Assembly: GCA_964564895.1 (NCBI GenBank) | Contig: CAZMCB010000003.1 | Location: 6,800 to 64,904, forward strand | From: an uncultured Pseudomonadales bacterium | Lineage (GTDB): Bacteria; Patescibacteriota; Microgenomatia; UBA1400; MFAQ01 | Length of the DNA: 58,105 bases | Reading direction: 5' to 3' | Shown here: positions 57,725 to 58,105 of the stretch, piece by piece | Layout: every line of letters starts with the position of its first letter | Numbering within the stretch: position 1 is the first letter of the stretch | The notes under the pieces: model-generated | Told to the model about the DNA's origin: nothing | Database searches by the model: none | Seen by the model: only the letters and a program-made list of their open reading frames with translations | Program-made: the position numbers and the translations under genes

Positions 57725-57786
57725 ATATTTGAAGCGTTTTTCATTTTTCAATCAGTCATATTCCCTAGTTTCTCATAAGAAAAAAA

Positions 57787-57824
57787 GAGGCCGGAGAGGG
57801 AATCGAACCCTCGCATGGAGGTTT
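57787..57824 (-). tRNA. 3' half of a tRNA (positions ~36-74), probably tRNA-Cys
   Basis: AAA-CCTCC-ATGC-GAGGG-TTCGATT-CCCTC-TCCGGCC-T-C: perfect T-arm, acceptor 3' strand implying GGC start and U73 (Cys identity); no D-arm or acceptor 5' strand in the window. Confidence 0.8.
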
Positions 57825-58104
57825 ATTTATCAACAACCTCCCTATTCAAGAATTCTAAATATTTATTATATTTATATTTCAAATATGGTGCATTGACGAT
57901 ATTGTGATAAATATATCCTGCGACCATAAGTGCGTTCCTACAGTTATATCTCAATCTATATGCATTAAATTCAAACGATAAAGAACATCTAATTGTCGGA
58001 AAAATGTATTTTATTAAAACCATCAATTGTTCTAGAAATATCTTACTTCCACTCGTGAAAATAATATTCATTCTAATATGTTTTGTCTTCTCAACATTAA
58101 TACA
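57823..58104 (-). CDS. C-terminal part of a LAGLIDADG-like homing endonuclease (open at window edge)
   Basis: Frame is open from the window end: CINVEKTKHIRMNIIFTSGSKIFLEQL...AYRLRYNCRNAL..YIYHN...YLKYKYNKYLEF; resembles the second half of LAGLIDADG_3 proteins; the namesake helix is outside the window. Confidence 0.55.
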   Translation of the reverse strand, partial: CINVEKTKHIRMNIIFTSGSKIFLEQLMVLIKYIFPTIRCSLSFEFNAYRLRYNCRNALMVAGYIYHNIVNAPYLKYKYNKYLEFLNREVVDK

Positions 58105-58105
58105 T

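Follow-up and report, generated by a model that had tools for sequence, protein, structure and literature searches.

The end of the window (the whole stretch of 58,105 nucleotides analyzed here) carries the 3' half of a tRNA-Cys gene joined to the stop codon of an open reading frame, both on the minus strand. The half spans 57788..57824 and was assigned from the sequence, a profile and homologous tRNAs to positions 37-73 of a tRNA-Cys(GCA) gene, the numbering being taken over from ARAGORN structures of intact homologous tRNAs. It begins with two A's, followed by the 3' strand of the anticodon stem (ACCTC, 57822-57818), the variable region (CATGC, 57817-57813), the T arm (GAGGG-TTCGATT-CCCTC, 57812-57796), the 3' strand of the acceptor stem (TCCGGCC, 57795-57789) and a discriminator T (57788). 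It is of the b-type, as we call the lineage's original tRNA-Cys gene with the anticodon stem GAGGT/ACCTC. A first-pass annotation made from the letters alone had proposed such a half tRNA-Cys, and its existence was confirmed. A tRNA-Cys profile (71 genes) aligned it to positions 37-74 (E 5.8e-6), its 36-nt core has exact matches in intact tRNA-Cys(GCA) genes of four genomes of the candidate phyla radiation (CPR), and 38 nt in a row recur without mismatch within the tRNA-Cys at two of our comparison loci (L105 and L001). The 21-mer GGTTCGATTCCCTCTCCGGCC is present in one copy within the window, against 0 expected. Neither ARAGORN nor Rfam found a complete tRNA within the window, and no tRNA-Cys 5' half was found there. 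The half is non-functional as a tRNA.

The stop codon TAA (57823..57825) abuts the fragment directly, and its two A's are tRNA positions 37-38. The first-pass annotation had joined the stop to the tRNA correctly but placed these A's at 36-37, one position off given the GAGGT/ACCTC stem; position 36 is T in the window, where a GCA anticodon would have A36. It was also right that the junction lacks an omega-G, the base preceding the tRNA part being A or T. The upstream mimic of positions 27-34, supposed to refold an anticodon-like stem, did not hold up and was rejected. This stretch, GGAGGTTG (57834..57841, minus strand), is coding (Arg-Glu-Val) and falls in the conserved C-terminus of the reading frame, where the closest homologue reads GGGAAGTCA. 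Its pairing with ACCTCC is not conserved, and the predicted junction hairpin is not significant (z = -1.18) and is missing in L006 and L005.

The reading frame (last 93 codons, 57826..58104, minus strand) is open up to the window edge, and about 143 codons with both LAGLIDADG motifs lie beyond 58105. The protein is on record on a 64,904-nt contig; the window edge may not be the contig end. Translation, homology, alignment and substitution rates identify it as the end of a double-motif LAGLIDADG homing endonuclease gene (HEG). The 93-aa piece alone gave no match in Pfam, NCBIfam, PHROGs, PDB or a word-indexed protein search, and its homologues were reached through a DNA pattern from the tRNA half, not with the piece as query. 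With one of them, P0002, it shares 70% identity over residues 144-236 of that protein (E 9e-45). P0002 in turn matches PF14528 at 3.3e-11, and the L005 ORF matches the same family at 2.1e-12; the early label "LAGLIDADG-like" was thus correct, through the homologues. The motifs LGFIYADG and GYFDGDG are nearly invariant in an alignment of 28 full-length homologues, and the window piece begins at the Cys following the second. The endonuclease is under strong purifying selection (Ka/Ks 0.05-0.17, window against L006, L005 and L007), and its divergence tracks that of the host gene gap (Spearman 0.88). A family-profile search found no PDB relative at E <= 1e-3. No similarity to phage DNA was found, and the phage relatives are only DOD endonucleases of about 30% identity from Staphylococcus and other phages.

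Gene order, locus states and relatives

The convergent neighbor of the tRNA half (55550..57724, plus strand) encodes a Cys-rich secreted protein of 724 aa, 54% identical to the flank gene of L006, and serves as a synteny anchor with L006, L100, L101 and L105. Further away, Pfam identified pgk (47333-48304), a CHAP-domain gene (48344-50434) and gap (50566-51651), all on the plus strand. Compared against the gene tables of L005, L007, L008, L090, L100 and L105, these three anchors place the window in the pgk-gap ... tRNA-Cys-PEGA lipoprotein neighborhood, and the order groEL-M23-pgk-gap-SIMPL-Cys-rich is common to the window and the comparison loci. The window is core chromosome, with dnaA, dnaN, groEL, valS, pgk and gap. 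L100 and the window have gap proteins of 98% identity. The contigs of L100 and L101 stop inside the same tRNA T arm, which is expected from an exact repeat of about 31 nt, and the recurrent contig breaks at HEG loci are explained by inverted tRNA repeats. L006 has the same Cys-rich flank, HEG and fragment junction and starts within the divergent tRNA leader.

Three states of this site were found. In the empty state, L105, the Cys-rich gene is followed by a complete b-type tRNA-Cys on the opposite strand and then by the lipoprotein gene, which reads in the same direction as the Cys-rich gene. This tRNA-Cys is 73/73 identical to that of L001 and has the position and orientation of our fragment, with no HEG; L105 was located via the neighboring protein, not via the tRNA. 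Because L105 has a complete b-type gene with its own leader and no HEG, the fragment derives from the resident gene. In a donor-like state (L008, L007, L090), gap is followed by the HEG on the opposite strand and then by a tRNA-Cys with different stems and the lipoprotein gene, both in the direction of gap. In the product state (window, L006, L005), the b-type 3' half and the HEG follow each other on the opposite strand, and a variant tRNA-Cys and the lipoprotein gene come next in the forward direction; in the window these last two would lie past 58105, as judged from the relatives. In sum, the HEG is absent from the syntenic site in L001, L002, L004 and L105 and present in L005, L007, L008, L010, L090 and the window, and the fragment is absent despite an intact HEG in L007, L008, L010 and L090-93.

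Upstream of the HEG, the complete syntenic loci have a promoter and a tRNA leader, followed on the other strand by an intact tRNA-Cys. The promoter (TTGACT-17-TAATAAT) is conserved in all clade-1 loci and ends a few nt before the start codon, and the divergent tRNA-Cys lies 81-104 nt upstream of the HEG in L005, L007, L008, L010, L090 and L094. In its orthologues the HEG is by all signs free-standing with its own promoter, a region that falls outside the window. The first-pass annotation had asked whether a 5' half or a full tRNA-Cys lies upstream of the ORF. In the relatives, the intact gene is there, on the opposite strand, and a 5' half is absent from all complete loci searched (L005, L007, L008, L010, L090-92).

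The tRNA-Cys genes fall into two sequence classes. Those without a HEG (L001, L002, L004, L105) are 98.6-100% identical at gap identities of 76-92%, while those linked to a HEG are only 68-86% identical in relatives at 87-93% gap identity, with compensatory changes in the D and anticodon stems. The association of b-type with HEG-less loci and of variant stems with HEG-linked loci would fit a susceptible target and an immune variant, but comes from a small sample: a fragment-derived pattern led to three of the four HEG-less loci, which biases the comparison, and only L105 is unbiased. The long fragments are all b-type (ACCTC in the window and L005, GCCTC, one change, in L006). In clade 3, however, the HEG-adjacent tRNA-Cys (72% identity) does not differ from the neighboring tRNA-Leu (71%). 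CPR tRNAs may simply evolve fast, and this null result leaves the clade 1 comparison with gap as the sole basis of the fast-evolution argument.

The endonuclease family comprises more than 1,400 proteins in CPR bacteria, and at nearly every locus examined the gene lies beside a tRNA-Cys or a tRNA-Asp, a linkage seen in about 90 loci. Further tRNA-Cys end fragments are found right behind the HEG stop in L094-99, L017, L022 and L025. In L080/81 the family member abuts a tRNA-Asp whose anticodon loop holds an ORF-less group I intron, which suggests that the sensitive site is the anticodon loop; group I introns near family members are also present in tRNA-Met (L061, L047, L059). The orientation of the tRNA flips between close relatives (L090 vs L093, L001 vs L004), an observation that the homing model does not explain. 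Inversion between inverted tRNA repeats was worked through on paper and rejected, as it cannot turn a divergent layout into a same-strand layout.

Origin of the half tRNA

The half tRNA is probably the scar of a HEG takeover, in which a tRNA-Cys gene was truncated at the anticodon loop and a HEG arrived with a linked variant tRNA-Cys. In all likelihood it is the remnant 3' part of a truncated gene and not the exon of a split gene. The most likely course is that the HEG's nuclease cut the standard tRNA-Cys gene close to the anticodon loop and that the half is a healed end of the break. From the comparison of the three states we infer the specificity of cleavage, the direction of events and the repair route as follows. 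The endonuclease would cut the DNA of a b-type tRNA-Cys gene at the anticodon loop or close to it. On one side, the break would be repaired by homologous recombination with a HEG-bearing donor, within its lipoprotein and promoter region, and this would bring in the HEG and a variant, cleavage-immune tRNA-Cys. The other break end, with the tRNA 3' half, would be joined illegitimately onto the HEG end, the b-type 5' half and its leader would be lost, and the cell would then depend on the HEG-linked tRNA-Cys. From the relatives only, this gene is predicted on the plus strand about 0.55-0.65 kb past 58105, and a leader like acttcaggcactattttatcatttatgaa would be expected past 58105, between the HEG promoter and that tRNA-Cys. 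Alternatively, the enzyme may target flanking DNA or the 5' boundary of the tRNA. An endonuclease element that inserts in the anticodon loop and duplicates the tRNA end, as first proposed, comes close to this model, but the second copy is inverted, complete and has different stems. Nor was the 5' half of the hit gene displaced: it is gone.

A broader form of the takeover model, which we put forward only tentatively, is that the HEG and its linked variant tRNA-Cys work together as a natural "cleave-and-rescue" unit. By cutting the DNA of the anticodon arm, the nuclease would destroy the single standard copy of tRNA-Cys, and the immune tRNA-Cys of the cassette would make the genome dependent on the cassette. 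The ongoing conflict would drive fast compensatory re-spelling of tRNA stems or the acquisition, as in L080, of a group I intron. If true, this would explain why the HEG is kept intact at one site across much of the CPR Microgenomates, as well as the divergent adjacent tRNA-Cys and the tRNA-Cys fragments that litter these loci.

Erosion of a second gene copy is the most serious competitor of the takeover, though an unlikely one. Here an ancestral HEG would have lain immediately upstream of a tRNA gene and overlapped it (as in clades 2 and 3). In the window clade a second, divergent tRNA-Cys would have taken over, and the downstream copy would then have decayed from its 5' side beneath the ORF 3' end, leaving a boundary without any endonuclease cut. 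In more than 40 cases, the HEG stop codon touches an intact tRNA-Cys or tRNA-Asp at its 5' end or falls within that end (offset -30 to +18, often -18 or -21), there are mirror cases with a truncated copy upstream and an intact copy downstream (L044, L055), and the local alignment of L005 extends to the D-loop. Fragment lengths also differ between sublineages, with boundaries at positions ~32-37, 52 and 58, a variation that fits erosion and a cut site equally well. Against erosion, the complete b-type gene of L105 traces the fragment to the resident gene and not to a partner tRNA carried by the HEG. Moreover, the ORF 3' end resembles the 5' half of the tRNA no more than expected by chance (p = 0.45-0.88 for the window, L006 and L005), and the conserved C-terminal tail of clade 1 runs past the required tRNA position 1. 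Decay of the 5' half in place under the ORF end was rejected for the same two reasons, no significant similarity and an unfit geometry of the tail.

The fragment might have been kept for a function, as a 3'-end or processing element of the HEG mRNA, a binding or decoy site of the endonuclease, or a homology arm, but we consider this improbable. Its 38 nt are 100% identical to functional tRNA-Cys in lineages where the synonymous sites of the HEG are saturated (Ks > 1), so that gene conversion from an intact copy, recurrent events or function is needed to account for its preservation. ACCTC, for which L005 has no conversion donor, is unchanged in the window and in L005, and L006 retains four of its five positions. 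However, gene conversion with the inverted copy can account for the identity of the T arm and acceptor (the L005 repeat is 31 nt and exact), there is no conserved fold, and L007, L008, L010 and L090-93 have intact HEGs without a fragment. A terminator or processing role was rejected, since the consensus terminator scan found no terminator-like site.

It is very improbable that the half is the 3' exon of a tRNA-Cys with a protein-coding intron in the anticodon loop (group I, group II, bulge-helix-bulge or a new type) and a 5' exon outside the window. This reading, which in a non-group-I form was one of the two alternatives of the first-pass annotation, draws on the start of the fragment in the anticodon loop, a classical intron site, on the group I introns in tRNAs beside family members (L080/81, L061, L047, L059) and on the lack of any other tRNA-Cys within the window. 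It expects the minus-strand tRNA-Cys 5' half GGCCGGATGG...GAGGTCTGC(A) upstream of the ORF, but the complete orthologues have a promoter and an intact tRNA-Cys there and no 5' exon, and to judge from these loci the intron is already largely refuted. No group I core (RF00028) was matched in 57300-58105 at E <= 10, and no Rfam intron core was found in five relatives (L005, L006, L008, L017, L022), while the positive controls L080 and L061 scored 50.3 and 82.5 bits. No G precedes the 3' part. The stop abuts the tRNA, which leaves no room for P7'/P9 of a group I intron or domains V/VI of a group II intron, and L007, L008 and L090 keep the HEG without any fragment. As to a bulge-helix-bulge or split tRNA, the genome is bacterial (GroEL, DnaA, DnaN and TsaD), the junction hairpin is unconserved, and an intact tRNA-Cys is adjacent in the relatives.

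Fragments of tRNA 3' ends whose start falls in the anticodon loop or the T loop are a usual mark of integrase att sites. The first-pass annotation had named an ordinary attR as the finding that would overturn it, but an attR-type remnant of an integrase island inserted into tRNA-Cys is just as implausible as the intron: in L094-99 large serine recombinase genes are neighbors of the fragment, in L090 they lie near the locus, and type IV secretion-like genes occur in the window, but the intact tRNA-Cys of the relatives is only about 0.8-0.9 kb off, inverted, with nothing except the HEG in between, a scan of 37 of the window's ORFs found no integrase domain, and the window is core chromosome. An att origin through the serine recombinase of L094-99 was rejected, as in L094 the recombinase lies outside the tRNA/fragment pair.

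Implications and comparison with known systems

If the takeover model is true, CPR bacteria host a widespread and long-lived free-standing LAGLIDADG family that targets tRNA genes, a cellular counterpart of SegB of phage T4. It would be a case of a selfish nuclease that swaps an essential single-copy gene for its own linked, immune copy, would offer an explanation for unusually fast, compensatory evolution of tRNA genes, and would make the family a source of new natural enzymes with about 20-bp specificity for tRNA-gene sequences. Annotators of CPR assemblies should not take half tRNAs beside LAGLIDADG genes for split or intron-containing tRNAs. No account of an association between LAGLIDADG HEGs and tRNAs in CPR turned up in full-text literature searches.

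The locus shares features with several known systems. As in the group I introns of bacterial tRNAs, the break is in the anticodon loop, but there is no ribozyme core, omega-G or 5' exon. As at integrase att sites, a 3' tRNA fragment lies next to foreign DNA, but the repeat is inverted, the copies are about 0.9 kb apart, and no integrase lies between them. LAGLIDADG genes are reported to be common in introns of the 23S and 16S rRNA genes of CPR bacteria (PMC7143001, PMC11809585). The window gene belongs to the same superfamily and host group; however, those genes sit in self-splicing introns, whereas the window family is outside introns and tied to tRNA genes.

In fungal mitochondria, mobile endonuclease ORFs of the Allomyces atp6 type supply a new end for the gene, and the displaced native 3' end stays behind as a pseudogene. 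The combination of an endonuclease gene, a working target copy and a leftover native 3' fragment is alike here, but the target is a tRNA, the working copy is whole and on the opposite strand, the enzyme is of the LAGLIDADG type and the host is a bacterium. Collaborative homing joins a free-standing endonuclease with an ORF-less group I intron, as F-CphI does in cyanophage psbA. The layout of L080/81, with a family member just outside an intron-bearing tRNA-Asp, is the same, whereas the window clade is intron-free and its immunity, if any, would come from the changed stems of the linked tRNA.

[quoted passage not shown] The window HEG is likewise free-standing beside tRNA genes. In contrast to SegB, it encodes a LAGLIDADG enzyme, its host is a CPR cellular chromosome and not a phage, its syntenic position is stable with divergence in step with a host gene, the sensitive region would be the anticodon arm of one tRNA, and the truncated target gene remains beside it.

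The tRNA-Cys fragment and the adjoining ORF

Sequence comparisons identify the tRNA half near the right edge of the window as the probable scar of a tRNA-gene-associated, free-standing predicted homing endonuclease. The endonuclease ORF (HEG), open at the window edge, runs on the minus strand from 58104 to 57826, with its stop TAA at 57825-57823; about 143 codons are absent from the window. Directly 3' of the TAA, on the same strand, stands ACCTC CATGC GAGGG-TTCGATT-CCCTC TCCGGCC T. A 36-nt pattern of this fragment matched five stretches in species-representative genomes; intact tRNA-Cys(GCA) genes account for four, from Woesebacteria, Collierbacteria and other CPR MAGs. 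In the cloverleaf of these four, the anticodon stem is GAGGT/ACCTC and the loop CTGCAAA; therefore, the window retains tRNA-Cys positions 37-73. Against a profile of 71 distinct tRNA-Cys genes the fragment aligned to positions 37-74 (E 5.8e-6). The half tRNA-Cys of the first-pass annotation is thus real, but its numbering was one position off: the stop codon supplies A37 and A38, and A36 is replaced by T. A 21-mer spanning T arm and acceptor strand occurs once in the window (0 expected). ARAGORN and Rfam found no complete tRNA in the whole 58 kb, and there is no pattern match to a tRNA-Cys 5' half within the window.

The 93 residues of the window ORF gave no matches when searched alone. The fifth pattern match, in L005 (one of the comparison loci L001-L105 from other genomes), is not an intact tRNA and has the arrangement of the window, in which a 233-aa ORF containing LGFIYADG and GYFDGDG motifs precedes the 3' part of tRNA-Cys. 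Relatives of the L005 ORF number 1,413. The closest relative of the window piece, the full-length protein P0002, is 70% identical to it over residues 144-236 (E 9e-45), and full-length family members pass the PF14528 threshold; the ORF is therefore LAGLIDADG-like, as had been proposed. The HEG enzymes are under purifying selection (Ka/Ks 0.05-0.17, Ks above 1). Their divergence follows that of gap (Spearman 0.88 over 66 non-independent pairs), and HEGs have therefore long persisted at the tRNA-Cys site.

The upstream stretch GGAGGTTG (57841-57834), read earlier as a copy of tRNA positions 27-34 with a refolding stem, is coding and specifies Arg-Glu-Val in the conserved HEG C-terminus. The site is GGGAAGTCA in L006, which carries the HEG closest to the window's, and is different again in L005. 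Pairing with ACCTCC gives a hairpin of no significance (z = -1.18), which L006 and L005 do not form; the 3' end of the HEG ORF aligns with the tRNA 5' half at chance level (p = 0.45-0.88). We treat the resemblance as a coincidence.

Gene content and locus layout

The window genome is bacterial and looks like a CPR member. Its genes include GroEL, DnaA, DnaN, TsaD, ValRS, type IV secretion-like genes and large Cys-rich secreted proteins. Of the secretion-like genes (2188-4503, 12181-15551 and 39590-42784), three encode T4SS-pilins, one a PrgI-like protein, one a VirB4/TraG-like ATPase and one a 1,064-aa coupling-protein-like ATPase with a fused NUDIX domain. The valine-tRNA ligase (29024-31075, minus strand), at only 683 aa, aligns to profile positions 1-696 of 860 and thus lacks the C-terminal domain. 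The minus-strand span 18797-21596 contains dnaA and dnaN, so the replication origin is probably within the window. Two paralogous Cys-rich secreted proteins (52456-54984, 842 aa; 55550-57724, 724 aa), with a 184-aa ORF between them, are 88% identical over their first 103 nt and share repeated modules; only one such gene is found in the relatives L100 and L105. The 724-aa protein is recorded on one contig of 64,904 nt, which leaves about 6.8 kb of source contig outside the 58,105-nt window, possibly past 58105.

Upstream of the fragment are M23 peptidase, pgk, gap, SIMPL and the Cys-rich genes, an order matched by L100 and L105 (gap proteins 98% and 92% identical to the window's). L006 has the same ORF-fragment junction, a right flank with a homologue of the 724-aa protein (54% identity) and, at its left start, 30 nt identical to the leader that L005 and L008 have at their divergent tRNA-Cys. 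The window is the same locus as that of the HEG-bearing relatives. The contigs of L100 and L101 end within the tRNA T arm, as would be expected if those approximately 30 nt occurred more than once in the genome; the intact tRNA and the fragment of L005 share an inverted repeat of 31 nt without mismatch.

Genomic context was gathered for the closest HEG relatives. With the HEG pointing right, L005, L007, L008, L010, L090-92 and L094-99 have a leftward PEGA lipoprotein gene, a leftward intact tRNA-Cys, a leader, TTGACT-17-TAATAAT, the HEG, the fragment or nothing, and then leftward gap and pgk or another gene. A protein-coding tRNA intron, one of the two earlier readings, is unsupported at these loci: the intact tRNA-Cys sought upstream of the ORF is present on the opposite strand, 81-104 nt 5' of it, and the 5' half is absent. 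Rfam detected only intact tRNAs and no intron core there; the same search picks up group I introns elsewhere in the HEG family. The HEG is intact with the fragment wholly absent in L007, L008, L010 and L090-93. An integrase scar as origin of the fragment is wrong. A highly conserved element, TTGACTTTTGGGTTTTGTTTGGTAATAAT, precedes the HEG start by 35-45 nt in all clade-1 loci (the window's group; L008 2966-3000, for example). Its 3' end is about 5 nt before the start codon, and it looks like the promoter of a leaderless mRNA. L001, with no HEG, retains a partial copy (tggcttttgggt).

Empty site and proposed origin of the fragment

L105 was found via a homologue of the Cys-rich protein, with no tRNA sequence used. 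Its 180 nt between the Cys-rich and lipoprotein genes lack a HEG and contain a complete tRNA-Cys, placed and oriented as the fragment is in the window. This tRNA is identical to the Woesebacteria gene (73/73) and contains the window's 38 nt exactly. Therefore, three states exist among close relatives: empty (L105), HEG and tRNA beside gap without fragment (L008 type), and HEG and tRNA accompanied by the resident gene's 3' half (window, L006, L005). The difference is bounded on the right by the shared lipoprotein promoter cttgacaNNatctgctatcatagacacaa and on the left by the anticodon loop of the resident tRNA. On the simplest path, a double-strand break in the anticodon arm of the resident tRNA-Cys gene would be repaired on the lipoprotein side by homology with a HEG-bearing donor, bringing in a variant tRNA-Cys and the HEG, and the remaining end would be joined illegitimately to the HEG end. 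One-sided repair of this kind is known from phage intron homing.

Two tRNA-Cys classes were found. Genes not linked to a HEG (L001, L002, L004, L105 and the second copy of L003) share 98.6-100% identity even though identity between their gap proteins is only 76-92%. Among relatives whose gap identity is 87-93%, HEG-linked genes share 68-86%. The paired changes that separate the HEG-linked genes lie in the D and anticodon stems; loops, anticodon and U73 are constant, and every long fragment belongs to the conserved class. This pattern is the one that a relationship of target and immunity would predict, in a small sample for which three HEG-less loci were retrieved by means of the fragment sequence itself. 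A caveat comes from clade 3, where the divergence of the tRNA-Cys next to a HEG does not exceed that of the adjacent tRNA-Leu.

Other features of these genes were recorded. The T loop, which near-universally starts with TTC, begins with TGC (position 55 = G) in 31 of 71 distinct HEG-linked tRNA-Cys genes (e.g. L011, L014, L016, L018, L024, L025, L027, L033 and L034) and in only 4/98 other tRNAs of the same loci; this may be a lineage trait of CPR tRNA-Cys or may have to do with the endonuclease. The tRNA-Cys and leader are flipped in place between close relatives, with a HEG (L090-92 and L007 versus L093) and without (L001 and L002 versus L004 and L105); the flipped genes are nearly identical, and neither flanking inverted repeats nor an invertase was seen at them. 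L003 (709-899) has two intact tRNA-Cys head to head, variant and conserved-class, with inverted leaders and an N run exactly at the centre, either a palindromic duplication unclosed by the assembler or a mixed-orientation population. In L002 (7322-7540), without a HEG, an intact tRNA-Cys is followed after 125 nt by GAGGGCGATTCCCTCTCCGGCCTCA, a tRNA 3' end with the T-loop TT deleted, which resembles what a lost element would leave behind.

The endonuclease family across CPR and known systems

A metagenome scan returned 80 of 436 confirmed loci, which ARAGORN and a neighbour-joining tree sorted into three groups. In clade 1, tRNA-Cys lies 41-104 nt 5' of the HEG on either strand. Clade 2 HEGs abut tRNA-Asp, and tRNA-Met often overlaps the HEG start; clade 3 HEGs abut tRNA-Cys, then tRNA-Leu(UAA), with the stop codon very often 18 or 21 nt inside the tRNA. 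In more than 25 loci of these two clades, the stop falls within the downstream tRNA by 7-30 nt, usually in the D-loop (offset -18 or -21; e.g. L040 3215-3232, L034 852-869, L054, L057, L063, L084). RNase P processing would therefore remove the stop codon from the mRNA, and the layout itself could restrain expression of the endonuclease. Short tRNA-Cys end fragments directly 3' of the stop codon occur also in L094-99, L017, L022 and L025, and in L044 and L055 an inverted fragment lies upstream. Genes for large serine recombinases (resolvases) adjoin the HEG and tRNA-Cys fragment (L094-L099 3249-4796; L090 507-1289), and in L094-99 the recombinase ORF ends within the fragment; tRNA-Cys loci may therefore also serve integrative elements.

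In L080 (3163-3452) and L081, directly downstream of the HEG, the partner tRNA-Asp(GTC) has a 212-nt ORF-less group I intron (RF00028, 50.3 bits) between anticodon positions 35 and 36. This is the layout of collaborative homing, and it again points to the anticodon loop. Group I introns of 273-275 nt are present in tRNA-Met(CAT) about 1 kb upstream of the HEG (L047 1319-1665; L059 767-1112; L061 1059-1403, 82.5 bits).

The CPR LAGLIDADG genes described so far lie within rRNA introns (PMC7143001, PMC11809585), and our literature search found no report of such genes tied to tRNA-Cys in CPR bacteria. The nearest documented system to this tRNA-linked LAGLIDADG HEG is SegB of phage T4, a free-standing endonuclease in a tRNA cluster whose site holds the T-psi-C motif of tRNA genes (PMC2330249), although SegB belongs to the GIY-YIG family.
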